Below the pieces are notes generated by a model. It saw only the letters and a program-made list of their open reading frames with translations. It was not told where the DNA came from and searched no databases. Below are positions 43,101-63,446 of a stretch of DNA of 64,000 nucleotides, one piece after another. Position 1 is the stretch's first letter. Each line of letters begins with the position of its first letter. The stretch lies in the NCBI GenBank assembly GCA_963840455.1, contig CAWIYV010000011.1:96001-160000 (forward strand), written 5' to 3'. The position numbers and the translations under genes were made by a program. Origin of the DNA: Nitrospirota bacterium (GTDB lineage: Bacteria > Nitrospirota > UBA9217).

Positions 43101-44087
43101 TTGCGGCTTTTCAGGATCAGCCACAGGATCATAGGAGCTTTTGATTCTTGATAGATGCCCTGTCAATGTTGCGACCTTCTCACCATTTGGCAACACAGCG
43201 CCCCAGGGGAGGATCTCTACGATCTGACCCGCAAGTGGCCAGTGAGCCTGATCCTTCGGACGGGTGATCATCTGAACGATTGTATTATTATTTTCGTCTT
43301 TATTGATCTGTATCCGATAAATCGGCGAGGCATTATCAAAACCCCATGTAAAATGAGTGGCATCTACAATCTGAACACGGATCGCCTGGTTCTCGGCGCC
43401 CAGGTATCCGCTCAGCAGGGAGGGTCTGCAAAGATCTTCTGCTACGCCGTCTGGCTCATAATCCACTGTTAGCTTTACATATGGTATTAGTTCTCCTTCA
43501 TAATTCAATACCCGAGCTCTGGAAAATGTTTGAACGAATTGTTTCCAAACCTCAATGCAATCATCGGACTTGACTTGTTCTTTAATCAATACTCGACGCA
43601 TCGTGCGAACACGGGTTGACGTGTCAGGCCCTCCGAGGGCTTTCTCAAGAATCTCGTTATCTTCTGTTGCCGTAACAGGCTGCTGCCAGGCTTCAAGATA
43701 AACCAGATCATAACGTTCACCTTCTTTTTTCGTTGGAGCAGGTGGTAAGGGCTCAGGTCGTTGCAGGGCGTCATTTTGCGTGAGAAATACTTCAGGCGCC
43801 GGCTGTTCTTCCATTTCAAGGCGCAGGCCTCCCAGATAGAAACTTCCCGGAAGAATGTCAAAATTAACGGTTCCGTTCTCGATTCGGGGGTTTGCAATAC
43901 GAAACCCGTTATCCGGTGTCCCCTGTGGACCAATGATGTCTACGCGCGTTCTGCGACGGTCTTCGTTGTCGAGCCGCTCGTTCTCGTTCCAGTCGTCGTC
44001 GATGATCACGCGACCCTGCTGCATCCGCACTCCGGCGTAGTGTTTACGGTAATCCGTTGATGATCGGGAGATATCTTCCGCTGCCAT
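40137..44087 (-). CDS. DUF6519 protein with parallel beta-helix repeats (eCIS tail fibre candidate)
   Basis: DISRSS...YAGVRMQQGRVIIDDDWNE, ALGGPDTSTR, GYLGAENQAIRV, GDHWIIAARP, then beta-helix repeats. Confidence 0.88.
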   Translation of the reverse strand: MAAEDISRSSTDYRKHYAGVRMQQGRVIIDDDWNENERLDNEDRRRTRVDIIGPQGTPDNGFRIANPRIENGTVNFDILPGSFYLGGLRLEMEEQPAPEVFLTQNDALQRPEPLPPAPTKKEGERYDLVYLEAWQQPVTATEDNEILEKALGGPDTSTRVRTMRRVLIKEQVKSDDCIEVWKQFVQTFSRARVLNYEGELIPYVKLTVDYEPDGVAEDLCRPSLLSGYLGAENQAIRVQIVDATHFTWGFDNASPIYRIQINKDENNNTIVQMITRPKDQAHWPLAGQIVEILPWGAVLPNGEKVATLTGHLSRIKSSYDPVADPEKPQFVIETPLPSNFDRKWIASSRNDHFYMRVWNRGADLESSPKIPYSPGTKVRLGKTGLMITMSGRGGLPGDHWIIAARPETPNKVVPWRLEEGMSPQGVRRFYAPLAIIHWSPREDGKTMVGEVSRDCRKRFRPLTQYQGCCSLTVGDGKTSHGDFDSIEEALKHLPSTGGEICLMPGVHEANVHIKGKRNITIRGCGNRTTIIPRGGHLTEPIIYIVDSQGILVEQVEMIAMGGKAVLMEGPEQGKLQFMRLFLRDIEIRHTRILAFDCAIHTFSGSQIKIHHNVIRMLDKEGAGVAIYVMGRDVLIEGNDIGVIPAESTPPGVIEPGEEDPANPCANVEDVYGHIRGAVRYAKALWNAEAMAVLPKEKMHKALGGIHVYSGSKNVKICSNKIIGGAGNGISLGHEIEITTDGAPEQVIKLYKYTYVQVVDERGNPLESIAVAFKNDAGQHSLLSHEDGRLDTINADGEFTVSILSPGWVIKHIEKKLIDEAHCKYKITLKKFEGSEGKNEPEKIKAPIQKVDITDNEITNMGLCGIGTPQNKYSLAMLYLSNPNSRILKILPRLSNISITLNRITGCVNSPITMDIRRKPRNFGFGPISLGWCTFIIVKDNQILQNGTTTKEPVYGMLILGTYIDIVGNVLAANGALIGELRLDYPALRGGIIAIALETAAAQLSDSLAVRTEDYQLKAMSNRAAAASAAGTTSAPTKPDEKLPYVPQVSVSDIMPAISIHNNTVQQPIGCTLMITAIGAVSVTDNYLHTVMSDPSTGGLGAVFILNAGRSTTDAPPLQKPASSVNPSARVNGNEYIETIRSSSRKSGHVLFANNHTILDLARRCRFSQIIHSSDDIGFHGNQSDVLDYDSTMKGNTWLKGMLTVRAADSRFKEAIKGMAKDQDTGTAKVMSLYTVGLVAARAIEAEIYISLLTMALVNNTTHNQGDHCIIVTGTKRIDNGNQVLFPVYCEQLKKDIAEIENKLSVISRLRMAMSGD

Positions 44088-44099
44088 GACAATATCCTC

Positions 44100-48906: not shown

Positions 48907-51416
48907 GCCCCGCCTTTCATGATGAGCTGCAGTGACCCGTGTTCGGGTTTTGACGGATCATTTTCGAGCCGGATCACTTCATCCGAACCCACAGGATAGA
49001 ATGATTCTGTAAATTCGCGCCATTCAAACCAGCCGCTACGCCTGAGCTCCGTACTGACAACGCCCCTTACGCCCGGGGTCTCCTGGATGCGAGCCTCTAA
49101 AACCGAGCGCTCGAGCGGCGTCCCGAAGGTGAAGTTGTCCGGGGAGAAGAAGCCCGGTTGTTGCTGAATCCCGCGTTTTCCAAGAAGGGCCTCCATGACC
49201 CGTTCCTTCACCTGTGTAGCATAGGCGTGCGGCACCACGCAGATGGTGATCCTCAAGTGCAGGTCAGCATACTTGGGATCGAGTACGTACACCTCTCGGC
49301 CTGCCTGGCGGAAACGGTCCATCTGGTCGCAGAGTTCCACACGCTGGACCTCCGAAAGAGTCACCGCGCCAAGCGGGTCCGGCGTCACGAACGCCGAAAG
49401 CCAACTGCCTGTCCAGCGAAAGATGGCCCCGGCCCGCTGGACCCAGGAAAGCCGTTCCGCGGCTTCGGCGTAATCTTCCGGCCGCACTGCCCGTAGAGGA
49501 AGCTCGCTGAACACATGGGGAGCCCGCAGTCGGATCTCTTCCGGCGTTTCAGGGTCTGTTCCGTTGGTTACGGGGAAGGGATTCGTAACCGTTTCGATAA
49601 AAACACCGAACATTCCGTCATCTATATCAAAATGCGTTATTGAATCCGCAGGCACATTCGTTTGCCGTCCGGTTCCGACACGATACATGACCTGGAAAAC
49701 CGTCCCCGGAGAGGGTATCGCACCAAACTCCTGGTCACCGAATCGAAGCGTGGTCCCTCTGCCATCGGCAAAGTCATAATGCACAATTTCCTGGCCATCC
49801 CGTCTGAATCCTACAACGCGCTTCCATGTCCCGTCATCAAGAGTAAAATGTTTTTCCATCGGATCTGATGCAAAGCGTTGGTCGTCCATTAAGGAAGACG
49901 GCATCCCCAGTAGTGAACGCCTCCATGTCCATGCTTCCTTCAGAGGCCATTCACGCTCCTTTTCGTCATACTCGACCTCGGCGATGCTGATCTCCGGGCA
50001 TGCCGTCTGTGGATCGCTGCCGAGCCAGTCCGCCCCCCGCCATACGAGCCCCTTGGCCTCTGCTCCGGACAGGCTGTAGAGATATGCGACCCTTCCGTTC
50101 GGGCCGACACGATTGACGGCCTGCTCAATTTTTTCGCGTTCTGCCACCGGCAGATCTACAGGCTCGGGGGCGTTACCAACAAAGAATTTCTCCTCCTGAG
50201 TCTTTCCCGCTGTAACGGGTACCATATTGGCATGAACTGACATGATACTCATGTCCATCTCAAATGGCAGGGCCTGTGCGTCCTCCCATTTGATCCGGGT
50301 AAGCTCATCACCCGTCAGCCTGTCTCGGATCTTTTTGTTTTTTATCTTGTCTTCGACCTCGATCAGACGTACCATCCACATCCGGGGCAGTGTTCCCGTC
50401 GTCTTAAGGAGCACCCACTTGCCTGGGAGTCTGTCCGGAGTAAGATCATCAAAAGGAAGATCTTTTTTGTATGAACCCTTTATATACAATTCGGTTGTGC
50501 CTGGGCTGAGACAAGGTTTATCGTTGTCCCAAATGTGGGGCTTAAATTCGTTCCGTAGGGCATCAACATCGTACGTTATAACAGATCGCGTCTCTGATAA
50601 ACCTTTCCCGATCTCAAAATCGATCTGCTCACCATTGTCAGCAATGGCCCACACATCCGCTCCTGCCGCTACTGTGGTCTTCTGCCCCTGCTTTACTTGC
50701 ACGTCGAGCCATGTCGATGATCCCAGACCGTCATGGACCGGATAATCCACCAGCCGGGCATGGCGCCGAAGCGATCGCCGCTGAGTTGCTGTTTCGAGAT
50801 AAGCCTCCCTGCCGATCCTGTCCTGATAGTATGCGAACTCGTCCCCCAAGGCGCTCATGACTTCCGCGAGCATCACTCCGGCATCCGCCTCGAGCCGGTC
50901 TTTCCAATCAGGATATCGCTGGGAAGCAAAATCGAGCAGTGCCCGCCGCAGGCTCCAGAAGTCCCGCGCCTGGTATTCTATCGTCACGTCATCTTGCGCT
51001 TCAGAGGGACATTCCGGATTTCTTTTCCTGCAGTCAACATCACTGCGACAGTTGGCCTTGAAGCTGAAGCAGACATCGTTGTAGTAGGGATCGATGCGGT
51101 CATCATCTATGTACAGCTTATAGATTGTAAAATCCCCTCGCATCTTGGTCAGTATTCGCAGCACAGGAATACCGTTCACTTCCGGCCATTCGAGCCCATT
51201 AACGGGGATAGGCGACAAGTTTGTGTCATTCTGCAGGCTGTAAATGCGGATCTTCTCTGGTTTCAAATCATCTATCAAAGGAACATCCAAGTCCGCCGGT
51301 GAAACAAGAAAATGCACTTCGAGCGTCATTTGCGAAGGATGGACATACACAAAATCAATCCCCGTAAGAGAGGTCTGTTGCTGAAGCAATGCAAGACGGC
51401 TCTGTGCATCCATCAC
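48903..51416 (-). CDS. Baseplate assembly protein (Afp11-like, baseplate J)
   Basis: YQARDFWSLRRALLD, EAYLETATQRRSLRRHARLVDY, LRFGDQEFG, RAVRPEDY. Confidence 0.9.
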   Translation of the reverse strand: MMDAQSRLALLQQQTSLTGIDFVYVHPSQMTLEVHFLVSPADLDVPLIDDLKPEKIRIYSLQNDTNLSPIPVNGLEWPEVNGIPVLRILTKMRGDFTIYKLYIDDDRIDPYYNDVCFSFKANCRSDVDCRKRNPECPSEAQDDVTIEYQARDFWSLRRALLDFASQRYPDWKDRLEADAGVMLAEVMSALGDEFAYYQDRIGREAYLETATQRRSLRRHARLVDYPVHDGLGSSTWLDVQVKQGQKTTVAAGADVWAIADNGEQIDFEIGKGLSETRSVITYDVDALRNEFKPHIWDNDKPCLSPGTTELYIKGSYKKDLPFDDLTPDRLPGKWVLLKTTGTLPRMWMVRLIEVEDKIKNKKIRDRLTGDELTRIKWEDAQALPFEMDMSIMSVHANMVPVTAGKTQEEKFFVGNAPEPVDLPVAEREKIEQAVNRVGPNGRVAYLYSLSGAEAKGLVWRGADWLGSDPQTACPEISIAEVEYDEKEREWPLKEAWTWRRSLLGMPSSLMDDQRFASDPMEKHFTLDDGTWKRVVGFRRDGQEIVHYDFADGRGTTLRFGDQEFGAIPSPGTVFQVMYRVGTGRQTNVPADSITHFDIDDGMFGVFIETVTNPFPVTNGTDPETPEEIRLRAPHVFSELPLRAVRPEDYAEAAERLSWVQRAGAIFRWTGSWLSAFVTPDPLGAVTLSEVQRVELCDQMDRFRQAGREVYVLDPKYADLHLRITICVVPHAYATQVKERVMEALLGKRGIQQQPGFFSPDNFTFGTPLERSVLEARIQETPGVRGVVSTELRRSGWFEWREFTESFYPVGSDEVIRLENDPSKPEHGSLQLIMKGGA

Positions 51417-51790
51417 ACTGTTACCTCCACATTGAGGTATCGCCGTTCCTGACGCGACTTCACTACGTAGGCAATTTGCACTATGAGCTTTTCCTCGACG
51501 GCCTCCGCCTTAACCCTATCAACACTGATCACACTGCCCAGCCATTTGTCCAGGGCCTGCAGGATCGTCACCTGCATGAGGCTCGCCGTGACGTCACTAT
51601 TGGGCGCGAAGATCATATTCCTCAGTCCACAGCCGAAATCAGGCCTATTGATCCGCTCACCCGATGAGGTAAGGAGCACCTGTTTGATCATTTGTTCGAC
51701 ATGCTGTGCATAGTCCGTTTCCTGCAGCAGGCGTCCCAGCCCGGTGTCGATCCCTATGGGATAATGAATAGATTGAATGTTCTTGCTCAT
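51413..51790 (-). CDS. GPW/gp25-family baseplate protein (Afp9-like)
   Basis: QVLLTSSGERINRPDFGCGL. Confidence 0.93.
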   Translation of the reverse strand: MSKNIQSIHYPIGIDTGLGRLLQETDYAQHVEQMIKQVLLTSSGERINRPDFGCGLRNMIFAPNSDVTASLMQVTILQALDKWLGSVISVDRVKAEAVEEKLIVQIAYVVKSRQERRYLNVEVTV

Positions 51791-51839
51791 ACACTGTTAC
51801 CGTCAAGCGATCAGGGAGCAAACACCGGCACGGGGCCGT

Positions 51840-52268
51840 TCACGACAAATCCATTACTTCTATTTCCTCGACTTCCGCTTTATGGACATTGCCGACTTGG
51901 TCCTGATATTGTTCCACGCTGATACCATGCCACTTTATCTTCCCGAGTTTTTGCGAAATTCCTCCGAAATTATCCGCAAGATCGTACACATCCACTTCTG
52001 ACTCGTTATTGCTCAAAACTTTGTGCTGGTTCGCCTGACTTTCGTCCTGTTCAACATACACCTTCAGTTTAAAGGCCTCTGATGAGTAGTCCTTCAGATG
52101 TTTAAGCACTCCTTGCGCGATCGCGGAAAATAAGATCCGCCGCTCAACCTGGCCAAGTGCGGTCATGGTTGTCCCGGTATATGCCTCCCATGCTGCCCGA
52201 AAGGCTTCTTCCATGGCCTCTGCCATGCTGCCGGAGTAATCTGATACCGTCCCTGCTTTAAATGCCAT
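51840..52268 (-). CDS. Hypothetical eCIS protein between spike and gp25
   Basis: GGAG RBS; SMAEAMEEAF...RRILFSAIAQGVLKHLK; no PAAR motif. Confidence 0.75.
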   Translation of the reverse strand: MAFKAGTVSDYSGSMAEAMEEAFRAAWEAYTGTTMTALGQVERRILFSAIAQGVLKHLKDYSSEAFKLKVYVEQDESQANQHKVLSNNESEVDVYDLADNFGGISQKLGKIKWHGISVEQYQDQVGNVHKAEVEEIEVMDLS

Positions 52269-52288
52269 GACACAATTCTCCGTTTATG

Positions 52289-52993
52289 CTATCCGGTTTT
52301 GACCCTCATCGATACAAGCTGCAAAGTAGCCGGTGGAAACGGCGGTACGGGAGGCGCCGGCGTGACCGGCAGCACGCCGAGCGCGAGCTGTCCCGGATGG
52401 ATGTGGCTCTGATACAGCGACACGAGCTGGTTCAGATAGGTGATCAGCTCGTCGCCGAACACCACGGGGTGCGTGGAGTTCTCCACCAGCTCGATCTGCG
52501 GCGCTTCTACGACTGCTTTGACAGCCCCTTTCACGGTGATCTTGCTCTGTTGGACCTCGATGGTCAGCATGTTGTTGCCGTTCTCGTCGCTTAAGCTGAT
52601 CTTCTGGCCGTCGTCGTCGAGAGTGACCATCAGACCCTGCCTGGTCCTGATGATCTTGAGCGGCGGCGTGGCTCCGGCGCCTGACTCGTTCTTCGGGAGT
52701 TGGTTATCGGCCCAGAAAAAACCTGTCCAAATGGGATACGACGGGTCACCAGCCTCGAATTCAACAAAAATACCTGTGCCCGTTTCCGGCTGCGCATAAA
52801 ACCCCATGCCGTCCCCTGCATAGGGTGTACACGGCATCGCCCATACCTCGAGGCCGCCCAGTACCGCCGGCACGCGGACCTTGATCCGTCCGCGCGATGT
52901 TGGATCATTATTGTCAGTGACCGTTCCCCGGTACTTTCCAAAATAACGGCTGCGCACCCAGTCAAGCAATTGTTCCTGCGAATCCTCGTTCAT
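52289..52993 (-). CDS. Baseplate assembly protein V / gp5-like spike (OB fold + beta region + HxH tip)
   Basis: RYFGKYRGTVTDNNDP..RGRIKVRVP, WAMPCTPYAG, VEFEAGDPSYPIWTG, C-terminal SHIHP. Confidence 0.9.
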   Translation of the reverse strand: MNEDSQEQLLDWVRSRYFGKYRGTVTDNNDPTSRGRIKVRVPAVLGGLEVWAMPCTPYAGDGMGFYAQPETGTGIFVEFEAGDPSYPIWTGFFWADNQLPKNESGAGATPPLKIIRTRQGLMVTLDDDGQKISLSDENGNNMLTIEVQQSKITVKGAVKAVVEAPQIELVENSTHPVVFGDELITYLNQLVSLYQSHIHPGQLALGVLPVTPAPPVPPFPPATLQLVSMRVKTG

Positions 52994-52994
52994 A

Positions 52995-54053
52995 TCAACT
53001 TCCCCACCCGTTTCGCCACAATTCCATTTCCATGCGGTGCGATTCTGCATCGATGGTGTGCCGCACACCGGCTACGAAATAATCGCCGCTGTGCCTGCTG
53101 CCTGCCCCGCGGACCTTCACGAGCGTATGTGCGCGGACCAGCGTGCCGAGGGTGTCCAAGCTTGTCTGGCACGTGGCCTGGGTGAACCAGTCTGCCTCTA
53201 TCAGCGCCCCCTCACCTCGCGCCGTCAGATCGCCGGTGTCGTCTGCCGGAGCTGCCAGATGAATGGATCGGGTGTCGCCGGTGATCGCCTGTAGGCCCTG
53301 GGTACCCAGAATAGGCTGTGGTGTAGTAGCAACAGCGCCGTTCATCTCGGACAAGGTGTTCAGGTCCAGTTGGGACCCCTCTATGCTCGTTGGCCGCTCT
53401 GCATCCCAGGTGATGTCGAGCGTCTGTATTCTGGGCGAAGCCAGGTTGATCACCAACTCCGCGCTCGGCCCTCCTCTCAATGGCGGGCGCTTGAAGTGTG
53501 CGGTCTCTGTTCCCTGGGCGTCGCAGCTGATCCAGAACAGATAGCCGTTGCGCCGCGCCAGTCGGCGGACGAACCGAAGGTCGCTGTCGCGCTGAACGAG
53601 CGTGTGCTTCGCTTCGTAATGTCCCGCGCTGGTCGTTTGCACATCAGACGTGTACCCATACTTGCTGAGAATCGTCTGCACTGCATCGCTGTCGGTCAGG
53701 TCGGCCCAGATGGCTGACCTCGTCTCCCGGTCCATGATGATCGATGTGTCCGAGCCGAAGACTTCCAGTGTGGAACCCGCGCCTCCGTGCCGGAGCCGGA
53801 CCTGCTGTTTATGGACCGGACCCTTGACCAGGCAGTGGATCTGGCCGTCAATAGGAACCAGGACTGAGAGTTCGGAGCCGGCGTCGAGCCTGCCGTCTGT
53901 AAGGAGCGGGATGTCGCCCTCACTGATATCCAGATCGTATTGAATCTGGAACGTTGTTGCCTCGCTGATCCGTTCGCTTACAATCAATTTTCGCGCTTGA
54001 ATAAGCTCTGGATCCGGTTTGCCTTTGATGGCTATCGCAATGCCCAGTCCCAC
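52995..54053 (-). CDS. Phage late control D / gp27-like hub (N-terminal half of VgrG/Afp8)
   Basis: QRDSDLRFVRRLARRNGY, VRGAGSRHSGDYFVAGVRHTI. Confidence 0.88.
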   Translation of the reverse strand: MGLGIAIAIKGKPDPELIQARKLIVSERISEATTFQIQYDLDISEGDIPLLTDGRLDAGSELSVLVPIDGQIHCLVKGPVHKQQVRLRHGGAGSTLEVFGSDTSIIMDRETRSAIWADLTDSDAVQTILSKYGYTSDVQTTSAGHYEAKHTLVQRDSDLRFVRRLARRNGYLFWISCDAQGTETAHFKRPPLRGGPSAELVINLASPRIQTLDITWDAERPTSIEGSQLDLNTLSEMNGAVATTPQPILGTQGLQAITGDTRSIHLAAPADDTGDLTARGEGALIEADWFTQATCQTSLDTLGTLVRAHTLVKVRGAGSRHSGDYFVAGVRHTIDAESHRMEMELWRNGWGS

Positions 54054-54331
54054 TACCGCACCTTCCTCGGGATCTCAATTTCGCGCTGCTCTGCCAGGGC
54101 ATCAGGGAGCATCACATCGTTCAGCTCGCAGATCCGCCAGAATCCTGCCGCATCATCCAGGTAACCCTTGGCCAGATGGTCCATCCGCTGGCCCTGACGC
54201 ACGAGGTGAGTGCCCAATGCGGTCTGGCCGGGCGTCTCAGGCACTGGAACAACCTTGACCTTCCGGCCCCGCCGGTCAACGACCTCGTAGGGTTCGAGCT
54301 TCGCATAGCGGCTTTTGGGATCGAACAACAT
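54053..54331 (-). CDS. LysM-like small eCIS protein (C-terminal half of Afp7)
   Basis: FDPKSRY...HLVRQGQRMDHLAKGYLDDAAGFWRICELN. Confidence 0.8.
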   Translation of the reverse strand: MLFDPKSRYAKLEPYEVVDRRGRKVKVVPVPETPGQTALGTHLVRQGQRMDHLAKGYLDDAAGFWRICELNDVMLPDALAEQREIEIPRKVR

Positions 54332-54340
54332 AACTACCTC

Positions 54341-55039
54341 CTATAACGGAAGCATGTCCAGGATCGATTCAGCGGTATTTGCAAGGTTCAGCCGGGCCAG
54401 TACCTCTTTCTGCGTCCGGGTGTATTTATAGGCCTTGATCGCAAGCTCCTCGCCCATCGAGAGCTTCCGCCCAAGCTTCTTGAACGAATCCTCGGTGAGC
54501 ACCGTGAGCCCCACCGAGACCGTGGCCCGGATCGGGTAGAGTGTGGGCAGGAACTCCTGCTCGTCCACGGAGAAGCTTGTGACACGCACCGGCAGAACGC
54601 GTCCCGGCCCCCAGATGAAGAGCACGATCGGCACGCTCCCCCGCGGCACTACGTCACCTGAGCCGAAGATCTCGGGAAGCAGTTGACCCAGGAGTGAATC
54701 GCCCACCGGATAGAGCAACATTTCGAGGGCGCTGATCCGGTCAGCAACGCCGGATATCTTCGCCGCCGGGTGTTTCTCCGGTTCTTCCAGGGCGTCCGTG
54801 GCATCGAGCTCAAGCTTCAGCTCGAATGACTCTCCCGGATCATAGGGCTCTGCCGTGGTCTCCTTGGCTTGGCCGCCTCCTTCTTCTGTGGAGGCTGAAG
54901 AGGGTGTCATGGTCCTGCTTATGGTCTCCGGGTTGTATTGGAAAACGATCACGTTCGGGATCGGTCCCAGAAAATCCTCGGATAGCTTCACGAGGGCGCC
55001 TTTCACCAGTTTCGGGCTTCTCGAATATCCATTCGGCAT
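54341..55039 (-). CDS. CIS tube-initiator-like protein (N-terminal half of Afp7)
   Basis: VIVFQYNPETISR, LELDATD, LFIWGPGRVLPVRVTSFSVDE...LYPIRATV. Confidence 0.85.
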   Translation of the reverse strand: MPNGYSRSPKLVKGALVKLSEDFLGPIPNVIVFQYNPETISRTMTPSSASTEEGGGQAKETTAEPYDPGESFELKLELDATDALEEPEKHPAAKISGVADRISALEMLLYPVGDSLLGQLLPEIFGSGDVVPRGSVPIVLFIWGPGRVLPVRVTSFSVDEQEFLPTLYPIRATVSVGLTVLTEDSFKKLGRKLSMGEELAIKAYKYTRTQKEVLARLNLANTAESILDMLPL

Positions 55040-55051
55040 ACTGTAACCTCG

Positions 55052-55645
55052 CTAAGTTCTGGACTTCTTACCGGCCAAGCTCTTTTTTGCGTTATTGATC
55101 TTGTCCGCGGCCGCAGGATGACGCTCAAGGATCAACTTTTCCCATGGAGCATAGAGATCTTCTTGCAGTTTGCCAGGTGTTGGCTCCAAATGTTCAACTA
55201 TATTTATTAGATGGATGCACCACTGACCGCCATATTCACCAATATCTGTCATCTCGCTCTCGGTCAACTTCTCTTTCTTCTTCTCATTGTCGCATCGAGT
55301 CCCTAATGCTTTGTCGAAGTTAATCCAAAGTTGCGCCTCATGATAGGCAAGATCCGGGTTGAGACTGAGGATAAAGTCACGGTTCTCCGACGGATTGCGA
55401 AAGATCTCCTCGTGGATGAATCGCTTCCGAAGATAGTCGGTCCATACTACCTGCTCTTTCTGGTTCTCTGGTTCGTGCGGCTCCATCTCTTGCATCTCAC
55501 GGTAGATTAACTTTTCAAACTCCTTTTTACGCTGTTCAGACTTCAGCTTCTCTATGCGCTTTGGCAACCAAACACCAAGAACAAAGAGGACTGAAGGCAT
55601 GAAAACAACATCGATAAAATCTTTCAAATTATCGAATCCCCCCAT
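55052..55645 (-). CDS. Hypothetical protein with an N-terminal TM helix
   Basis: 197-aa ORF, GGAAGG RBS, TM VVFMPSVLFVLGVWL. Confidence 0.7.
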   Translation of the reverse strand: MGGFDNLKDFIDVVFMPSVLFVLGVWLPKRIEKLKSEQRKKEFEKLIYREMQEMEPHEPENQKEQVVWTDYLRKRFIHEEIFRNPSENRDFILSLNPDLAYHEAQLWINFDKALGTRCDNEKKKEKLTESEMTDIGEYGGQWCIHLINIVEHLEPTPGKLQEDLYAPWEKLILERHPAAADKINNAKKSLAGKKSRT

Positions 55646-55664
55646 AATATTCCTTCCCGTCCGG

Positions 55665-56780
55665 CTACGAAAACACGGGCTTCTTGAAGTTTATGTGAAC
55701 GCAATGATTTGGCGGCTCCGGCTGCGTGCTGTTTATGGAAAATTCACCCTGTTCGCCGAATTCCGGGATCTGCGTTTTCAGGATATCGTCGAGAACCTTG
55801 AGATCGAGCCCGGAAACATCCATCGCTTTCCCGATTAGATGCGGCGAAGCATTCACCGCCTTGCCCTTCCAGGTGGTATTAGCAGGCGCGGCCACAAGCG
55901 GAAGCGTACGCTTATCAGAAGGGACACCCGGCCCTCCCCCGCCCCAGTATAAAGCCAGGAAAAACGGGACCCAAACATCCATATCCGCCACCGTGCACGA
56001 TGCGAATTTCTCCCAGTCAAGCGTACCCTTGAGCCAATCCGTCTTCTCGGCATAGGCATTAACGCTCTTTTTATTCTGTTTACAATACCCCCTGAGAATG
56101 TCGAGCTGTTTTTTCTGGTCTCGCTTTGCAGATCCGACCGTAGCCTTCTTTCCTTTCCCGAAGGTTCCAAGCTCATTGTGTTTCTCAATAACGTCTTTTG
56201 GGTTTTTCGCTGCGGCCGCTGCCGGTGTCTGTACTGCCGGCACCGGAGCTGCTTTTGGTGCTTTACCTTTCTCTTCACCGCCTGTTATAGATTTGATCAA
56301 TTCCCTTGCGTATTCTATGAGATCAGCTCCGAAACCTTTCTCTTTTTTCTCCGCTGCAGTAGGAATAAGGATGGTCTCACTTGCATTAAACCCGATTTTC
56401 TTCCCTTTGGCTGTTGACCAGGTCTTCACCTTTGAAGCATTCTTCTTTATCAAGTCCTCTGCCTTGACGTTGAATTTCGCCGCGATCCGTTCGATCGTAT
56501 CTCCGGACTTGACTTTGTATGTTTGTTCTTTCTGCGCAACGGGTGTCGCATTTGCCGGGCTGCCGCTATCCTTATCATATGCATCACCGACCGAAGCGAT
56601 TTTCTGCCCCGATGGAGCAATGGGACGGTAAGAGCCTTTAATCACACTATGATTGCCTAGACTATCCCGGGAAGTCTGTGCAGTTTGAAGTGACTTGCGT
56701 TGCAGCGTACTTGTCTCGCTTATTTGATAGGCCTTAATTTGACCTTTCGTCTGTTTCTTCTTAGTAGTTAGCTGTTTCAT
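55665..56780 (-). CDS. LysM + M15/LAS-type zinc peptidase with an eCIS-like leader (candidate cargo)
   Basis: LysM YKVKSGDTIERIAAKFNV; SPHLIGKAMD (SxHxxGxAxD) and EPPNHCVH. Confidence 0.8.
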   Translation of the reverse strand: MKQLTTKKKQTKGQIKAYQISETSTLQRKSLQTAQTSRDSLGNHSVIKGSYRPIAPSGQKIASVGDAYDKDSGSPANATPVAQKEQTYKVKSGDTIERIAAKFNVKAEDLIKKNASKVKTWSTAKGKKIGFNASETILIPTAAEKKEKGFGADLIEYARELIKSITGGEEKGKAPKAAPVPAVQTPAAAAAKNPKDVIEKHNELGTFGKGKKATVGSAKRDQKKQLDILRGYCKQNKKSVNAYAEKTDWLKGTLDWEKFASCTVADMDVWVPFFLALYWGGGGPGVPSDKRTLPLVAAPANTTWKGKAVNASPHLIGKAMDVSGLDLKVLDDILKTQIPEFGEQGEFSINSTQPEPPNHCVHINFKKPVFS

Positions 56781-56843
56781 GCGGCTCTACACCTCATCAC
56801 GCACCAAGTCCCATTAACACGAAAGCTCTGAACTTAAGGTGTT

Positions 56844-57269
56844 CTAAAGTGTTTGCGAACCACGCGCAGTGGCTATCAATTCATCTTCCCAAAAATACCG
56901 GACCTCAATCGGCTTTTCAGCCTTGAGAGCAGTCAGTGGCACGACGAACTTCAGTCTGTACTGCTCAGGGCCCACTGCATCCCACCCCTCCTCTCCTTCT
57001 CTGGATATAGTGGTGATCTGACTGCCAGTCACTGACTGTCCGTCTTGAAAGATCTGAACCTTGTTTGTCGTGCCCCGCTCCTTTTCAGATCTCCAGATGT
57101 AATCCCATATGTCTGATTTACCGGTTGGTACAAGCAGATCGAAGACCACATTTGACTTCAAGACACTCAGATTGATCACTCGAAGCTCACCTTCCGGTAA
57201 CCAGTACTTCTTGCTCTGTGCAACCACGGGTGCCCCATTCAGTTGCATGATGATTTCCACAGCTTCCAT
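56844..57269 (-). CDS. Hypothetical 141-aa protein downstream of the toxin
   Basis: AAGGAG RBS before ATG 57269 (MEAVEII). Confidence 0.65.
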   Translation of the reverse strand: MEAVEIIMQLNGAPVVAQSKKYWLPEGELRVINLSVLKSNVVFDLLVPTGKSDIWDYIWRSEKERGTTNKVQIFQDGQSVTGSQITTISREGEEGWDAVGPEQYRLKFVVPLTALKAEKPIEVRYFWEDELIATARGSQTL

Positions 57270-57609
57270 CCCGGTCTCCTTCTGCTGTTGTAACGTCAAC
57301 TCACCTATGCGAATTACCGGCCTGATGTTTATCTTTATGTCGCGGATCCTTCAATAATTCATCGAGTGCTTTCTGCGCAGTTCTTCCGAGCAACTTTTGT
57401 TTTTGCATCCTTTATCGGTTCACGTAGAAATTCTGGAGCTCCTTAAGATTCAAAAGAGTGAAAAACTTATTCACAATATCTTTTTTAGGTTCTTCTTTTA
57501 GTTGTCCAATTCATTTATGAGTGTCAATATGTGCCTAACTGAGCACACCAGCGGGAAACTGGCACGATTCTGCCTGTTCCATTATTTACCGTTCAGCATT
57601 TTCCCCACT

Positions 57610-59829
57610 CTAACGAGTTACTCCAGCCTTCTTTATAAGTTTAGGATCCGCGATAACGCTTGGTGGGCTTCCATCCTTATGAAAGACCCGCCAAATCCGG
57701 CCTTCTTCGTCAAAGACGAAAAGGTCTTGCTTCAGATTCAAAGCCTGCTTCTGAAAGAACTCCACACAATCCTGGCACATCCACTTATCAACGGATATTG
57801 GCTGTCCAGGGTTGGCAACAGCTAACTGCTTCTCTGCATGACTCGCGTTCCATTCGCCGACAAAATTTTTGTCTCGGGGATGTGGTTTCAATTTATGTCC
57901 GATTTTCTCAGCTCGTTCCGCTACTGCCTCAGAACTTACTCTCTTTAATGGTTTTCGGCTGACCGCCCTCCTGTAGATGGTAACTCCTCCAGGTTGCTGT
58001 TCAATGCTCACCGCGACGGTCGCACCTTTCTTTGCTCGTTTCTGCGGTAACTTCTCACGCATTCGAGCAGTCGCTCCTGGTGCTGGTTCCTGCCCCGCAC
58101 CCACTGTTTTTGGTACCCTGCCTTTTTCGACTATTACCTTGGCAGGTTTAACACGTTTGCCTTCGACATAGCTTCCGCCTGTTTCTATTTGTCGGGGGGC
58201 ATCTCCTAGGCGGGCTGTTTTCGCACCTTCTTCTATTTCACCACCGACGCGCGTAACAGTACCGCCAGCCTTCTCAGCCTCACGTATTTTGCCTACGTAG
58301 CGATTGGCCTGTAGGATGCGCCGTAAACCGGGAATGTGCTCCAATAAGTCTATCAATCTCCTCGCGAATCGACTCGTTCTCAATGCTTTGCCAGCCGCCG
58401 ATACTCCGCGCGCCACCCACGCTTCTGGGCCAAGAAACAGCAAGGCGATCTCGAACACCACATAACCCTCTACTCTCCCAACCTTGAAACCCTTCCAAAA
58501 AGGGCTCGCTTTTTTGAAGTCGGTATTATACCAGCGGCCGGCCATTTGCCCAACTTGCTGCCCTATCTCGTATCCAAATTCGATTAGAAACGCTGGATAT
58601 CGACGCATCTGCTCGATGAATTCAGTTAGTCCCCTCTTCACTTCTTGGGCGTAACGTGCTTGCGCCGCCCGCTTAGCTTTATATCCCTGAGGATCCTGCA
58701 AAAACTCGATTCCTTCTTTGATCCCCAATTGGAGCAATCCCTGAGGGGTCAGATATTTAGCAACAAAAGAGGCAAGTTCTGCAATTCCAACGACATTGTC
58801 TTTCAGGCTCTCAAGCGCTCCTACTGGAGCGCCCAACTGAACACCACCGTTGAAAGCCAAAAGGTTCATTGTCTCGCTCAGTTCGTTACTTAGAGTAGCC
58901 CACTCGTCCGCATGAATCGTCTGTCGCGCCCCTATCAAGAAGCCTTGAGCAAAGCCAGTGGTTATTGTGGCTAGCCGATAGGCAGCCTTCAGTTCGCCTG
59001 GCATCCAGGCTGATATCTTTTCCCCGTACTTTCGTTCGTAAGCCACCAACATCCGCTGTGCTGCGGATTGCATCAGTATTCCGAGCTGGTTTTCAAGCTC
59101 TGCTCGTTCTGAACTCTGTCCCGGGTTATCTCGGAGCCATTTTTTGATGAGCTTTATTTCCCGCTGAAGCTTCTCGTCTGACATCAGTTGCACGTTTGGT
59201 GACTGATTAAGCGAGAGTGGTTGTCGCGCCAGTCTAACTCCGGATGAACCCCACACTCGTATCGGCCCTCTCCCTTTTATGGCGGCCCCAGCCGCCCAAT
59301 CAGCCGCCTGTTCCAAGGCACCGCTCTGAGAGAGGGAAAGCGATGTCGTCCCGCCACGTGACTGTTGTATTACGTGTGCCAACTCGTGAGCCACAAGGCG
59401 ATATCCTTCGCTACTTTCGAGTTTGTACCGGCCATATCCAAAGACTAGATCTTGACCCACCGTGTAAGCTGATGCGTTTACCGTTCGCGCCGACTTCGCT
59501 GCCCTCGCATCAGTATGCACCCTCACGTTACTGAAATCATGCCCGAAGCGCGGTTCAAAATGCGCGCGCGTTTTCGGATCAATCGGTTGGCCGGGAGAGC
59601 GCAGGACCTCCTGTATAATGGGCGGTACTGCTTTTGGCCTGTTTTCATTATGCGGCTTGTGTTTCGCAATGTTATTGCCAAAACTTCGCAGCACGCCATG
59701 ATTCCCCATTGTGCCTTGAAGATCATGACCCGAATGCGCAAAGCCCTGCTGCTGCGACGAAATTTCAGCATTCTGCACTTTCCGTGCATTACGCTCTGTC
59801 TGCTTCTTCTTGACTGCGACCTGTTTCAC
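57610..59829 (-). CDS. DUF4157 (eCIS core domain) protein with a C-terminal Zn-dependent deaminase toxin
   Basis: FEPRFGHDFSNVRVHTD...AHELAHVIQQ; hydrophobic middle; WNASHAEKQL...MCQDC. Confidence 0.88.
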   Translation of the reverse strand: MKQVAVKKKQTERNARKVQNAEISSQQQGFAHSGHDLQGTMGNHGVLRSFGNNIAKHKPHNENRPKAVPPIIQEVLRSPGQPIDPKTRAHFEPRFGHDFSNVRVHTDARAAKSARTVNASAYTVGQDLVFGYGRYKLESSEGYRLVAHELAHVIQQSRGGTTSLSLSQSGALEQAADWAAGAAIKGRGPIRVWGSSGVRLARQPLSLNQSPNVQLMSDEKLQREIKLIKKWLRDNPGQSSERAELENQLGILMQSAAQRMLVAYERKYGEKISAWMPGELKAAYRLATITTGFAQGFLIGARQTIHADEWATLSNELSETMNLLAFNGGVQLGAPVGALESLKDNVVGIAELASFVAKYLTPQGLLQLGIKEGIEFLQDPQGYKAKRAAQARYAQEVKRGLTEFIEQMRRYPAFLIEFGYEIGQQVGQMAGRWYNTDFKKASPFWKGFKVGRVEGYVVFEIALLFLGPEAWVARGVSAAGKALRTSRFARRLIDLLEHIPGLRRILQANRYVGKIREAEKAGGTVTRVGGEIEEGAKTARLGDAPRQIETGGSYVEGKRVKPAKVIVEKGRVPKTVGAGQEPAPGATARMREKLPQKRAKKGATVAVSIEQQPGGVTIYRRAVSRKPLKRVSSEAVAERAEKIGHKLKPHPRDKNFVGEWNASHAEKQLAVANPGQPISVDKWMCQDCVEFFQKQALNLKQDLFVFDEEGRIWRVFHKDGSPPSVIADPKLIKKAGVTR

Positions 59830-60062
59830 TTCAAAACCCTCAGGATTGCATCGGAGATCATTGTCACCAGTCGTTCCCGTGTTGCTCCCGTCGTGACGGG
59901 AATTTTCAATTCTATTGCGCCGAGACGGCGGTCCTTTTGCTGTGGAGGGAGTTTATCCGCCACGCGACGCATCACGTCCGCGCCCAGCCTCTGTGCTTCG
60001 CCCTTGCTGTGTCCGGGCAGCCGCAAAATAAAATCTTCTATCTTCACCTCATCCTTTTGCAT
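59826..60062 (-). CDS. Small hypothetical eCIS protein
   Basis: 78 aa; overlaps both the ATPase stop and the toxin start. Confidence 0.7.
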   Translation of the reverse strand: MQKDEVKIEDFILRLPGHSKGEAQRLGADVMRRVADKLPPQQKDRRLGAIELKIPVTTGATRERLVTMISDAILRVLK

Positions 60063-62154
60063 AGCTCCGCAGCCGATCCCGCTCCCGCCCGCTCAGGACC
60101 CGGCCTTCCTTCATGAGCTCTCGCTCCACGCCCCGGAGGAGATGGGTCAGGCCCATGGGTCTACGGTCCCGGCGTGCCACAAACAGGGCCGTGAGTATTG
60201 CGAACTTGATTTGTGCTCCGGTCAGCTCCAGGTGCTCGGCGAGCGCAGTGACCTCGTGTTCCAGCTTTTTAGTGTGCTCCGGCCCCGCCAGTTCTTCGGC
60301 TATCTTCCGCCAGATCTCTCCGCGCTGGGCCGAGTTCGGTTTCGGAAACTCCAGCACATAGCGGATTCGTCTGAGGAAGGCGGGATCGATGTTGCTTTTC
60401 CGATTTGTCGCGAGGATCGCGACGCCGCGGTAGTTCTCAACGGCCTGGAGCAGGTATCCCGTATCGGTATTTGCAAATCGGTCATGGGCGTCTTTAATTT
60501 CCGTCCTCTTGCCGAACAGGGCGTCCGCCTCGTCGAAGAGCAGCACGATGTCCATGGTGGCTGCGCGGGAAAGGATGCGTTCCAGGTTCTGGGAGGTCTC
60601 GCCGACATACTTGCTGACCACTGCGGAAAGGTCCACGCGAAACACATCAAGCCCTAGACTCGCGGCAATGACCTGGGCCGCCATGGTCTTGCCCGTTCCC
60701 GGCGGGCCGCTGAACAAGGTCAGTAGTCCTCTGCCTTGGGGAAAGAGGCGACGTCTTTTCGGCTGCTCCCAGAATTCAACGCGTTCCCGGGCCTCGAAGG
60801 CAAGATCTTCCAGGGTGTCGCGGAGATGGTCCGGAACGACGATGTCGTCCCACGTGAAGGGGCACTCGAGCATCTGGGCGAGACTGTCGAGCTTCTTTCG
60901 GTTGGACTCACGCACGAAGGTAAGAGCGGTCTCAGCGCTCTGGATGTTCTGCCGCGCCGCTGATGCGATTTCACCTATCTGCACCCGGTGCTGGGACACA
61001 AGCGTGTCGAACTCCTCGGATTCCCACGATTCCGATTGGGGCACAAAGTGCCGCCAGAGAAGGCGTCGTTCCTCCTGGGATAGTTCCGGCAGTTCGACAC
61101 GGAGGTCTGCGACTCCCGGAACAGGGGGGACCTGCTGCGCTGCTTCCGCAATGACGAACTGCAGGGGAAAAAGAGGAACCGTTACTGGCCATGCCCTCCG
61201 AAGCGGGTTCTCGCCATGCCACGCAAGGGCGCACCGTTCGAGATACGCTTGCCGCTGCGCATGCAAGAACGCCGTATGCCAGGTCTGATCGTCAACCAGG
61301 TCTGTATCGATCGCGAGCAGCGGAAGGCCGAGTCGCGAGCAGATTCCCGCGGCAAAAGTGCGCCGGCCGCTGCTGGATGGTCCGGTAATGTGCAGCCGCA
61401 CGGTCTGGGGAGCTTTTCCCTGGAGCAGTTCCTTGATCGTCGATGCGGTCTCGCTCATCGGCCAGTTCTTCAGGGGCTCAAGGGGATCTTGGAAACGGCT
61501 GATTCCCGCGAGCCGTTCATCAAGATAATCCTCGCCTGCCAGCCAGTCGCAGATGAAGGGGTCACAGATCAGCCTGGCGGGCTCGCCGGAACCGACCTCG
61601 TATTGCCTTACTAGGCCCCACCGCCTGAGCGCAGACTCAGGGCTCCAATGACTTCGATGAACATGTCCGAAGAGCCGCGCGGCCAGTTCCGCAGTCGCGT
61701 ACCCCCGTCCTGCGTGGTCGTGCAGGTAGGCATAAACGCGGGAGAGCGCGGGATCAAGGGCCGGAGCCAGACAGAGCTGTAAAAGGTCTGATTCCGCTGG
61801 GCTGATGTCGAAAAGGGCATGGAGCTGCGCAAAGCGGGACTTGGTGTCCGCAGCTATGGCTGCTTCGAGTCGATCTATTTCATAGTTCAACTGTTTCATA
61901 CCGGCGTCAGATGCAAACCACGCTGCCTCCGCTTCGGGCGAGTCCCGGTTGTCAAGATAGGTGTCGATCTCGGCATGGGTCACTGCCACCGTGCCACCCG
62001 GCGCTCCTTCCTCTGCCCAGAGTTTCCTGAGCCAGGCGACGCGCCGCTTTGCGAGGAGACGCATCCGCGACAACACCCGATCGAGCGCTGCATCGAGCTT
62101 CTCCTGTCCCCTTTCGAATTCCCTGATGGCATGTTGCTGTCGTGTTCGCGTCAT
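60049..62154 (-). CDS. eCIS AAA+ ATPase (Afp15/Pvc15-like)
   Basis: GPPGTGKTMAA, VVSKYVGETSQNL, LLFDEADALFGKRTEIKDAHDRFAN, IDPAFLRR; ATGA overlap at 62151-62154. Confidence 0.95.
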   Translation of the reverse strand: MTRTRQQHAIREFERGQEKLDAALDRVLSRMRLLAKRRVAWLRKLWAEEGAPGGTVAVTHAEIDTYLDNRDSPEAEAAWFASDAGMKQLNYEIDRLEAAIAADTKSRFAQLHALFDISPAESDLLQLCLAPALDPALSRVYAYLHDHAGRGYATAELAARLFGHVHRSHWSPESALRRWGLVRQYEVGSGEPARLICDPFICDWLAGEDYLDERLAGISRFQDPLEPLKNWPMSETASTIKELLQGKAPQTVRLHITGPSSSGRRTFAAGICSRLGLPLLAIDTDLVDDQTWHTAFLHAQRQAYLERCALAWHGENPLRRAWPVTVPLFPLQFVIAEAAQQVPPVPGVADLRVELPELSQEERRLLWRHFVPQSESWESEEFDTLVSQHRVQIGEIASAARQNIQSAETALTFVRESNRKKLDSLAQMLECPFTWDDIVVPDHLRDTLEDLAFEARERVEFWEQPKRRRLFPQGRGLLTLFSGPPGTGKTMAAQVIAASLGLDVFRVDLSAVVSKYVGETSQNLERILSRAATMDIVLLFDEADALFGKRTEIKDAHDRFANTDTGYLLQAVENYRGVAILATNRKSNIDPAFLRRIRYVLEFPKPNSAQRGEIWRKIAEELAGPEHTKKLEHEVTALAEHLELTGAQIKFAILTALFVARRDRRPMGLTHLLRGVERELMKEGRVLSGRERDRLRSYAKG

Positions 62155-63446
62155 GGCATCTTGATCCACTGCGGAGAAGACTCCGCGCCGTTCACGAAAA
62201 TCCGCAGCGGATAATTTTTACCCGGCTCCAGCGTGGTCGGCAGCTGCACGGTGATCTGGGACGTGGAATCGATTGTGAACTCGCCGCTTGCGAGCGGCCC
62301 GCCAGAGGAGAGCGCCAGTCTTATCTGCCCCACATATACCTGCACGCCCCCCGTGGGAATGTCTGCGTGCCGGAAGAGATATCCGGTTATGACGACCTTA
62401 TGGACAGCATCGGGTGGAGCAACAGAATCAATCCGCGGAGTAATGGTGAAAGGGCAAGCGTTGGATCGATGTTCGATATCCTGCGTCCCCGATGGTGTGG
62501 CCAGTTTTCTGGTGACTTTTGCAATTACAGCGTATACTCCTGGAATCACATCGTTTCCGTTGGCCTTTTCCTGTGCCACGGACGAAAGCTCGATGGCTGT
62601 TGCAGCAAGGCTCCATGAAGCGGTAACGTCAACCGGATCGCTCCAGCGCTGATGACACAGCAATAAAGACGTCCGCTCGCCGGTAAAGCCTGCACCTTTA
62701 AATTTGATCCTGCTCTTTTCGATTGCCGGGTCGTTAGGTGGCAATCCTGTTTTTACAGAAGGCGCCTGGGCGGGTTGAAGCGTCAGGTTTTGTGTTGCTA
62801 ATGTGCCTGGTATTAGGAAGGACATAGTGCTTTGACTGCTGTCTATCCTCGGAGCCCCGTTGACAAAGGTCTGAATCCCGTATGCCAAGACTCGGCCAGC
62901 CCGGGATTTCGACTCCTCCGGCTCAAGCAGAGCGACAGAAACCTGGTAATAGGCGGCAAGACGGAGGGGCGATGATCCGGCTGTCCAGTAGCTCACGGCA
63001 TCATGGTGTGCAACAGGCTGAAGCACGATCCGCAGACGGTTATTATCCCCTTGGAGGTCCGCGGGATAAATGCTCGTTCCGTCAATCGCTGTTGCATCGT
63101 CTATGATCGGATAATCGCGAAGGGCCTTAATAGCAATGCCCATCATCTGCTGTTCAAGAAGACTGTCTTCAGAAGTGCTGCGAGCGGTAAGCTGGTAAAA
63201 GAGATTCAGCCCCATGGGCGTATAACGGACGGGTGGTGTGTCGTTGCCTAGTGCAGGCAGATTTTTGTAATGCGCATCCTCTGCTATGTGATAGAGATAC
63301 AGGCCGATGGAGTCGCCGGTCAGCAGGTTCGGCGGCTGGGGTGAAACAGTAGGAGCAGTAGCACCCCATGCCGGCGATGCTCTGAAATATTCCGAGATCA
63401 GTGTGGTGAGCGCCTGGGTCACCAGGCTGATATTCAGCAATGCCAT
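62151..63446 (-). CDS. DUF4255 / Afp16-Pvc16-like tail terminator with C-terminal IPT-like domains
   Basis: IGLYLYHIAED, PMGLNLFYQLT, LRLAAYYQVSVALL, YPLRIFVNGAES. Confidence 0.88.
   Translation of the reverse strand: MALLNISLVTQALTTLISEYFRASPAWGATAPTVSPQPPNLLTGDSIGLYLYHIAEDAHYKNLPALGNDTPPVRYTPMGLNLFYQLTARSTSEDSLLEQQMMGIAIKALRDYPIIDDATAIDGTSIYPADLQGDNNRLRIVLQPVAHHDAVSYWTAGSSPLRLAAYYQVSVALLEPEESKSRAGRVLAYGIQTFVNGAPRIDSSQSTMSFLIPGTLATQNLTLQPAQAPSVKTGLPPNDPAIEKSRIKFKGAGFTGERTSLLLCHQRWSDPVDVTASWSLAATAIELSSVAQEKANGNDVIPGVYAVIAKVTRKLATPSGTQDIEHRSNACPFTITPRIDSVAPPDAVHKVVITGYLFRHADIPTGGVQVYVGQIRLALSSGGPLASGEFTIDSTSQITVQLPTTLEPGKNYPLRIFVNGAESSPQWIKMP

Follow-up and report, generated by a model that had tools for sequence, protein, structure and literature searches.

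A comparative catalogue of polymorphic toxins published in 2012 lists deaminase domains among those linked to a PVC-metallopeptidase domain and exported by Photorhabdus virulence cassettes (PVC) (Zhang et al., PMC3482391); the catalogue is purely comparative, and its accessible passages name no PVC-linked deaminase clades. EAT11 from Amycolatopsis nigrescens, which combines the same domain, DUF4157, with a predicted deaminase and is associated with an extracellular contractile injection system (eCIS), was shown in 2021 to kill E. coli and yeast (PMC8213781). The closest described enzyme is the toxin domain of SsdA from Pseudomonas syringae (BaDTF2; structures 7jtu, 9c63 and 9c64), which acts on single-stranded DNA (ssDNA) (PMC7901873, PMC12494967). 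For cargo loading, the nearest described case is AlgoCIS, whose cargos Cgo1 and Cgo2 (PMC8894135) consist of a disordered N-terminal domain, DUF4157 and a variable C-terminal effector; the N-terminal domain is system-specific, shared by both cargos and required for loading, and DUF4157 is dispensable (10.64898/2026.05.27.728243). Here we analysed a stretch of 64,000 nucleotides from a Nitrospirota bacterium (GTDB lineage Bacteria; Nitrospirota; UBA9217; assembly GCA_963840455.1, contig CAWIYV010000011.1, positions 96,001 to 160,000 of the forward strand), referred to as the window. A minus-strand gene at positions 57610-59829 of the window, the cargo gene, encodes a predicted contractile injection system (CIS) cargo with an N-terminal DUF4157 domain and an SsdA-like deaminase at its C-terminal end.

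The identity of the C-terminal domain was established by several independent comparisons. Pfam SsdA_C (PF24120) matched residues 629-670 of the cargo protein (E = 6e-12, 46.4 bits against a curated cut-off of 27), and the same family scored 49.2 bits when the last 156 residues were scanned alone. A phmmer search of all PDB chains retrieved SsdA as 7jtu_A (E = 1.4e-20) and 9c63_A (E = 9.9e-20), and the matches that followed the SsdA chains had E-values of 0.47 or worse. The alignment joined residues 4-143 of the domain (140 residues) to residues 29-162 of 7jtu_A, which is nearly the whole crystallised toxin domain, and placed HAE and CxxC in register between the two proteins. The H/CxE and CxxC motifs of the cytidine deaminase superfamily are present as H664-A-E666 and C685-x-x-C688, and the codons of HAE and CQDC were read directly in the window DNA. 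For SsdA, the numbering of the HAE motif was taken from PMC12494967, by way of its E348A mutant.

Modelling gave the same answer. An AlphaFold2 model of the domain built from 79 sequences reached a predicted local distance difference test (pLDDT) score of 84.2 and a predicted template modelling score (pTM) of 0.81. When this model was searched with Foldseek, three SsdA chains came out on top (E = 2.6e-12 to 2.5e-11), with template modelling (TM) scores of 0.75-0.77 and root-mean-square deviations (rmsd) of 2.1-2.9 Å on superposition; the individual values were E = 2.6e-12, TM 0.76 and rmsd 2.1 Å for 9c63_B, and E = 2.2e-11 for 7jtu_A. The next family was a PPR-DYW protein (9kfx, E = 2.3e-4, TM 0.58), beyond which DYW domains, DddB and DddA appeared at E = 3e-3 or weaker (9k3e, E = 7.9e-3, and 6u08, E = 3.4e-2, belong to these DYW, DddA and DddB comparisons). 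All of the eight best matches were deaminases of the SsdA, DYW or DddB type. The plant and protist DYW deaminases, DddA (BaDTF1) and DddB (BaDTF3) share the superfamily fold and zinc site with the cargo domain, but their structural matches are much weaker. Membership of the DddA-like, BaDTF3-like (DddB) and DYW groups was rejected on these fold matches, which are weak against those to SsdA. The Pfam scan of the cargo protein found no DYW_deaminase at E up to 1, and, unlike the DYW RNA-editing deaminases, whose marks are a PG box, a second zinc site of the CxC type and a DYW end, the protein lacks a C-terminal DYW tripeptide and ends in ...KKAGVTR.

Judged from sequence and model, the C-terminal domain is an SsdA homologue over the whole length of the crystallised domain, with a predicted SsdA-type fold and an intact catalytic centre (H664, E666, C685 and C688). 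A preliminary description of this DNA had called the region 57610-58050 a deaminase toxin domain and had likened it to the SsdA clade. That span corresponds to the last 146 codons and the stop of the cargo gene, and the peptide it quoted, GEWNASHAEKQLAVANPGQPISVDKWMCQDCVEFF, is found exactly in the cargo reading frame, near the C-terminus. The motifs and the modelled fold bear out the deaminase domain, and the clade guess is backed by Pfam, by the alignment to the solved SsdA and by Foldseek. The comparison it had proposed with SsdA, DddA and DYW put the SsdA chains in the lead, with DYW, DddB and DddA far behind.

The N-terminal part of the protein was equally clear. Pfam eCIS_core (PF13699) matched residues 82-159 with an E-value of 3.1e-31 and 107.8 bits against a cut-off of 22, with the HExxH motif intact, so that the DUF4157 domain claimed earlier is real. 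The cargo gene provided the sole eCIS_core match and the sole SsdA_C match in its own 4.03-Mb genome. Between the two domains, the hydrophobic helices and the basic linker of the preliminary description are visible in the translation, but they lack any family match: Pfam matched nothing in residues 161-583 with the threshold relaxed to E = 10, and the best score of the linker in the ESM Atlas was 0.81, a lead only. The leader that precedes DUF4157 likewise had no Pfam match at E up to 10. Its residues 1-48 resemble residues 1-48 of ORF371, an open reading frame (ORF) downstream (16 of 48 identical, BLASTP E = 2e-7).

The eCIS setting also proved real. The gene belongs to a minus-strand operon. 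Read along the transcript, it comprises genes for a sigma-54 activator, a sheath protein and a gp19-type tube protein, all just beyond the window (locus L003), then those for Pvc16_N and a winged-helix AAA+ ATPase and an ORF of 78 amino acids (aa), before the cargo gene. ORF151, ORF371 with its LysM domain and a 197-aa ORF follow, and after them come CIS_tube, Phage_GPD, a VgrG-type oligonucleotide/oligosaccharide-binding (OB) domain, Baseplate_J and a fibre-like DUF6519/beta-helix protein. The cargo gene is placed between the AAA+ ATPase and the tube and baseplate genes.

Taken together, we regard the gene, with a probability of about 0.75, as encoding a modular CIS cargo toxin made of leader, DUF4157, linker and a C-terminal SsdA-homologous deaminase, acting as follows. 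The leader of about 80 residues would target the protein to the neighbouring AAA+ ATPase and to the lumen of the tube, into which the ATPase would feed it, and the particle would inject it into another cell. There the deaminase would convert cytosine to uracil in the target nucleic acid, most likely DNA, and thereby kill or mutagenise the target. The zincin domain has been proposed to release the toxin by self-cleavage (Zhang et al., PMC3482391). The architecture of the cargo resembles that of the AlgoCIS cargos in its N-terminal domain, DUF4157 and variable C-terminal effector, and the toxin and ORF371 share a leader as the two AlgoCIS cargos do. Because it is common to ORF371, paralleling the shared N-terminal domains of Cgo1 and Cgo2, we infer that the leader is a loading sequence, a role that has been shown for AlgoCIS; the C-terminal domains of the two systems differ. 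With EAT11 the cargo has in common an N-terminal DUF4157, a C-terminal deaminase and an eCIS association, a likeness by description, the main text on EAT11 naming no deaminase clade in its accessible parts (PMC8213781). As the neighbouring cargo-like ORF371 carries LysM, bacterial targets are hinted at.

We then placed the domain among its relatives. An exhaustive HMMER search with the 156-residue domain against 1.84 billion representatives yielded 273 proteins at E up to 1e-3, 48 of them at E up to 1e-10. A word-indexed search with the C-terminal region returned only the record of the cargo protein itself and one relative, P0003, which reflects the sensitivity limit of that search and not rarity. 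We scanned 151 proteins (150 listed representatives of the 273, and P0003) with the DUF4157 region of the cargo, and DUF4157 was present in 31 of the 151, the cargo's own record counted. His, Glu and both Cys are retained in all 31. Pfam detected SsdA_C in 41 of 41 long relatives without DUF4157, whose carriers included PAAR (8), RHS_repeat (4), RHS (4), prePAAR (3), T7SS_signal (2), WXG100-type (2) and Phage_GPD (1) domains. Two plasmid records, a HINT-type polymorphic toxin and a hemagglutinin-repeat protein, provide further contexts. This range of carriers argues that the SsdA-like domain is a polymorphic-toxin module, apparently used by type VI and type VII secretion systems (T6SS, T7SS) and by contact-dependent and CIS carriers. 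SsdA itself differs in this respect from the Nitrospirota protein, which has DUF4157 in a CIS operon in place of PAAR and the T6SS; a representative close to SsdA, P0007, carries prePAAR and PAAR.

A FastTree phylogeny was calculated from 133 domain rows, 18 of the 151 having been dropped (fragments shorter than 110 residues, P0004, and the repeat protein P0014). One group of 42 rows (support 93) took in 25 of the 31 DUF4157 rows, and the DUF4157 label required 17 changes on the tree against a shuffled mean of 28, with none of 500 shuffles as low. This suggests only that the DUF4157 forms are mostly one CIS-associated group with some exchange, and relatedness alone can cluster such labels. The cargo domain and P0003 paired with a support of 99 on a long branch. 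Their deaminase ends are 66% identical, compared to 36% for the whole proteins, which indicates that the deaminase end is the best-conserved part of the cargo protein. P0014 (286 aa) showed five short matches to the query around CxxC and no HxE, and looks more like a Cys-repeat protein than a deaminase; it was left out of the tree and of the structure alignment.

In genomes the SsdA-like domain was rare. A sample of 400 further genomes of the phylum yielded no copy, nor did 45 genomes holding DUF4157 loci. Among 63 other genomes of the family, two had a match to any part of the cargo protein, covering the DUF4157 region only, and none of 80 other DUF4157 loci, collected by a genome contig scan keyed on the DUF4157 motif, held the deaminase or ORF151. 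A first metagenome scan for relatives gave no match, and a second one, with P0003 as the query, gave three carrier relatives only and did not recover the contig of P0003 itself. In one metagenome CIS locus, L084, the gene order is ATPase, 244-aa ORF, 675-aa DUF4157 protein, Pvc16_N, sheath and tube. The 675-aa protein is 36% identical to residues 124-536 of P0003 and has a different C-terminal module, so L084 appears to show the exchange of C-terminal cassettes on one carrier, in the same operon position. In the window, the G+C content (GC) is 0.40-0.50 over 55050-58050, which covers the 197-aa ORF, ORF371, ORF151 and the deaminase end, compared to 0.58-0.61 in the flanking CIS genes. This low-GC block suggests a recently acquired cargo cassette, separate from the machine.

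Several points weigh against the picture of a delivered, DNA-deaminating toxin, and the most specific concern the substrate. SsdA shapes ssDNA by means of His332, Tyr334, Tyr342 and Phe343, contacts the downstream nucleotides through Lys289, Ser300, Trp302 and Arg336, and stacks Thr290 on the target base; the Y334A, Y342A, H332A/Q/T, F343A, K289A, S300A, W302A and R336A mutants have no or almost no activity (PMC12494967). The SGW motif, in an insertion before the HAE helix, is among the most conserved residues of BaDTF2 (PMC7901873; PMC12494967). In the ungapped part of the phmmer alignment, His332 corresponds to His650 of the cargo protein, Tyr334 to Arg652, Arg336 to Lys654 (a conservative change), Tyr342 to Trp660 (still aromatic) and Phe343 to Asn661; further upstream, Thr290 corresponds to Thr604, Lys289 to Ala and the isoaspartate-forming Asn294 to Ser. 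The cargo domain is therefore changed at K289, Y334 and F343, positions at which one substitution is enough to remove all or nearly all ssDNA deamination by SsdA, and the aromatic cluster is not retained as such (His, Arg, Trp and Asn). The Gly-Trp of SGW is missing in both the phmmer and the MAFFT alignments: phmmer sets GGV opposite SGW, MAFFT retains Ser624 and deletes Gly-Trp, and neither leaves a Trp. The helical insertion before HAE is present, as a helix at residues 50-59 of the modelled domain. Model confidence is lowest at the loop itself (pLDDT 56-66 at domain residues 31-50).

The remaining objections concern immunity and delivery. No recognisable immunity gene was identified for the toxin, and the word 'carrier' overstates what is known of DUF4157, because the domain is dispensable for loading in AlgoCIS. 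Delivery by a free particle and mutagenesis of DNA are both steps that we infer for this cargo. CIS that are cytoplasmic or anchored to a membrane also exist.

A survey of the family helped to weigh these departures. SG[WYF] was present in 105 of the 126 domains that could be scored, namely those with at least 55 residues before HxE; 13 had SG followed by another residue, and eight had neither form (the query, P0003, P0004, P0023, P0028, P0032, P0037 and P0110). At least P0023 is among the eight through an artefact of the search window, since the family alignment shows it to have SGW, and P0004 is a fragment or duplicate of P0003. The motif is missing from the query, from its close relative P0003 and from the P0003 fragment. 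The Tyr334 and Phe343 columns, on the other hand, are variable family-wide, with Asn the commonest residue at the Phe343 position. Because these columns vary, the aromatic cluster that clamps ssDNA would seem to be more a feature of SsdA than of the family, and the missing SG-aromatic loop emerges from the alignments as the firm peculiarity of the query lineage. This lineage is, as far as the alignments indicate, one of SsdA homologues, but an atypical one. Lacking both SG[WYF] and a counterpart of Tyr334, which SsdA uses to clamp ssDNA, it probably grips its substrate differently from SsdA. A preference cannot simply be copied from SsdA, nor can the label 'ssDNA deaminase', because single substitutions in SsdA at the changed positions abolish activity.

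It is possible, though not what we would expect, that the fold and chemistry are those of SsdA and the physiological substrate is not ssDNA, the groove having been remodelled to suit double-stranded DNA (dsDNA) or RNA, cytosines that carry modifications, or a narrow range of sequence contexts. The loss of SG[WYF] and the Arg at the Tyr334 position would fit such a change, and tested SsdA-like enzymes range from those that prefer ssDNA to those that accept both strand forms, some of them acting on RNA (10.1101/2023.06.29.547047). Among solved structures, however, that of the ssDNA enzyme SsdA is by far the closest; the cargo domain keeps the equivalents of Thr290 and His332 and is still aromatic at the Tyr342 position, and the Tyr334 column, being variable, may be SsdA-specific and not diagnostic. 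The same substitutions, at sites where SsdA single mutants are inactive, could mean that the domain is a relic, decayed or of weak activity, and the cargo inert. This is very improbable: the ORF is uninterrupted and keeps all four of the zinc-binding and catalytic residues, the domain is far better conserved with P0003 than is the rest of the protein, and the unusual loop, GGV.IYRR.VSR.P.KRVS, is conserved between the two, which argues for selection over decay. A producer-directed role also seems unlikely. An unreleased CIS would act in or on the producing cell, in regulated cell death or development as reported for the CIS of Streptomyces and Anabaena, and the deaminase would damage the producer's own genome. 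In favour of this, no immunity gene was identified, DUF4157 effectors do occur in intracellular systems (PMC11126660, PMC8894136), and the sigma-54 activator just upstream of the sheath gene suggests regulated expression. Against this, the locus encodes the fibre-like DUF6519/beta-helix protein and a full baseplate, and a peptidoglycan-binding LysM domain on the probable second cargo fits attack on other bacteria, as in the toxin reading that we prefer.

The immunity question centres on ORF151, the first gene downstream of the toxin. That it encodes the cognate immunity protein, and with it a new fold class of deaminase inhibitor, is a tentative idea that we hold to be more doubtful than a changed substrate. 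Its GC (0.46-0.51) matches the low value of the toxin end, again against 0.58-0.61 in the flanking CIS genes, it was absent from the 80 other DUF4157 loci, and its family is tiny and about as rare as the query-type toxin (five clusters including its own, the four homologous clusters, P0154-P0157, being 58-69% identical). Its AlphaFold2 model (pLDDT 82.2) is mostly beta, however, unlike the all-helical SsdAI, and no helical gene of the SsdAI kind was seen beside the toxin, in contrast to SsdA. Nor did ORF151 have a fold or family match: no Foldseek hit reached E = 1e-3, and the best VIA-align hit, to a phiKZ baseplate chain, had a Z-score of 6.5, within the stated noise range. A search of the genome for Imm5, the immunity family that PMC3482391 links to bacterial DYW-type deaminases, gave no match, and the control genomes were likewise silent. 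PVC-type toxins are usually without adjacent immunity genes (PMC3482391), and Geller et al. discuss the same puzzle (PMC8213781). A bolder proposal combines the two ideas: the query and P0003 would form a CIS-borne offshoot of SsdA in which a basic loop at about residues 614-631 replaces the SGW/Tyr334 clamp and confers a new preference (for dsDNA, structured DNA, RNA or a defined sequence context), with ORF151 as its beta-sandwich immunity protein. We consider this combination improbable, though somewhat less so than a producer-directed CIS; if true, the offshoot and ORF151 would provide a compact deaminase and its inhibitor as a new pair for use in editing or footprinting.

The features of the locus are collected in Table 1. 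ORF371 is probably a second, cell-wall-directed cargo. The 181 residues of its C-terminal half had no Pfam match at E up to 10, and by eye they contain SxHxxGxAxD and HxH strings of the kind seen in M15/LAS peptidoglycan peptidases, a likeness that no search confirmed. ORF151, the 197-aa and 78-aa ORFs, and ORFs of 142 and 178 aa had no match in Pfam, NCBIfam or PHROGs. The 197-aa ORF matches locus L024 from a Trueperaceae metagenome-assembled genome (36.5% over 104 residues, E = 1.6e-14) and may be a conserved CIS accessory gene. The gap between the toxin stop and ORF151 (57300-57609, 310 bp, GC 0.40) contains only ORFs of 20-35 codons and is unusually long for an otherwise tightly packed operon. 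Past the window end, at 5782-9687 of L003 in the same genome, the sheath gene is immediately preceded by that of the sigma-54-dependent activator, with an ISL3-family transposase beyond the latter; the activator is a possible CIS regulator, and the transposase a possible mark of a mobile island. A gene for a trypsin-like serine protease (38000-39037, minus strand) follows the CIS block.

Table 1. Features of the cargo gene and its operon in the window, and of one metagenome locus (L084) used for comparison.
Feature	Coordinates	Strand	Basis or remark
Whole cargo gene	57610-59829	minus	739 aa + stop; GTG start immediately after stop of upstream 78-aa ORF
N-terminal leader, residues 1-80, Lys/Gln/Ser-rich, candidate loading sequence	59590-59829	minus	Resemblance to ORF371 leader
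eCIS_core/DUF4157 (PVC-metallopeptidase) domain, residues 82-159	59353-59586	minus	Pfam PF13699
HELAH of eCIS_core domain, residues 148-152	59374-59388	minus	Read in translation
Long linker, residues 160-583	58081-59352	minus	Hydrophobic helices and basic Gly/Lys/Arg-rich tail; conserved in P0003 and L084 carrier
SsdA-like cytosine deaminase domain (predicted), residues 584-739	57613-58080	minus	Pfam, phmmer, AlphaFold2, Foldseek
SsdA-aligned core of deaminase domain, residues 587-726	57652-58071	minus	phmmer alignment
H664-A665-E666, zinc ligand His and catalytic Glu	57832-57840	minus	Aligned to SsdA H346-A347-E348
C685-Q-D-C688, two cysteine zinc ligands	57766-57777	minus	Aligned to SsdA CTDC
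ORF151 (141 aa from ATG at 57269), candidate immunity or accessory protein, 310 bp downstream	56844-57299	minus	Conserved beta-sandwich
ORF371, probable second cargo with LysM, without DUF4157	55665-56780	minus	Pfam and shared leader
197-aa ORF	55052-55645	minus	No family match
Downstream CIS structural block	40137-55039	minus	Includes two large unannotated proteins
DUF6519/beta-helix protein, 1316 aa	40137-44087	minus	Likely fibre or receptor-binding protein
AAA+ ATPase, N-terminal winged-helix (Afp15/Pvc15-type), two genes upstream	60049-62169	minus	Pfam AAA E 3.3e-27, WHD E 9.3e-20
Pvc16_N tail terminator/cap protein	62151-63446	minus	Pfam PF14065 E 2.4e-28
L084 675-aa DUF4157 protein	L084 5360-7387	plus	Between ATPase and Pvc16_N

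A DUF4157 or PVC-metallopeptidase domain paired with a deaminase cargo has been described before (PMC3482391, PMC8213781), and both the principle of a carrier-borne toxin and the enzyme family were known. The specific combination of an SsdA-type domain with DUF4157 appears not to be discussed in the literature searched, though it follows from the older catalogues: no paper was found to combine BaDTF2 with 'contractile injection', the only one to score for both SsdA and eCIS owed this to a broken word among its references, the accessible text of the SsdA paper contains neither DUF4157 nor 'contractile' (PMC7901873), and PMC11297309 contains no occurrence of 'deaminase'. The preliminary description had also raised the prospect of a base-editing enzyme. 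The family it had guessed is borne out, but cargo of this kind was known before, and bulk screening of SsdA-like enzymes and their engineering into editing tools have been published (10.1101/2023.06.29.547047, PMC11789416, PMC12628173, PMC13067763).

The locus offers, in an environmental bacterium, a clear-cut natural case of a toxin of the DNA-deaminase type as a predicted CIS cargo, in a family in which about one-fifth of the SsdA-like representatives examined use a DUF4157 carrier. A modest point of interest is that its SsdA homologue lacks the SGW clamp and has a conserved and unassigned gene, ORF151, as a neighbour. The altered substrate loops make the lineage a reasonable candidate when deaminases with new preferences are mined. 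If the enzyme is active, CIS particles could mutagenise neighbouring cells as well as kill them.

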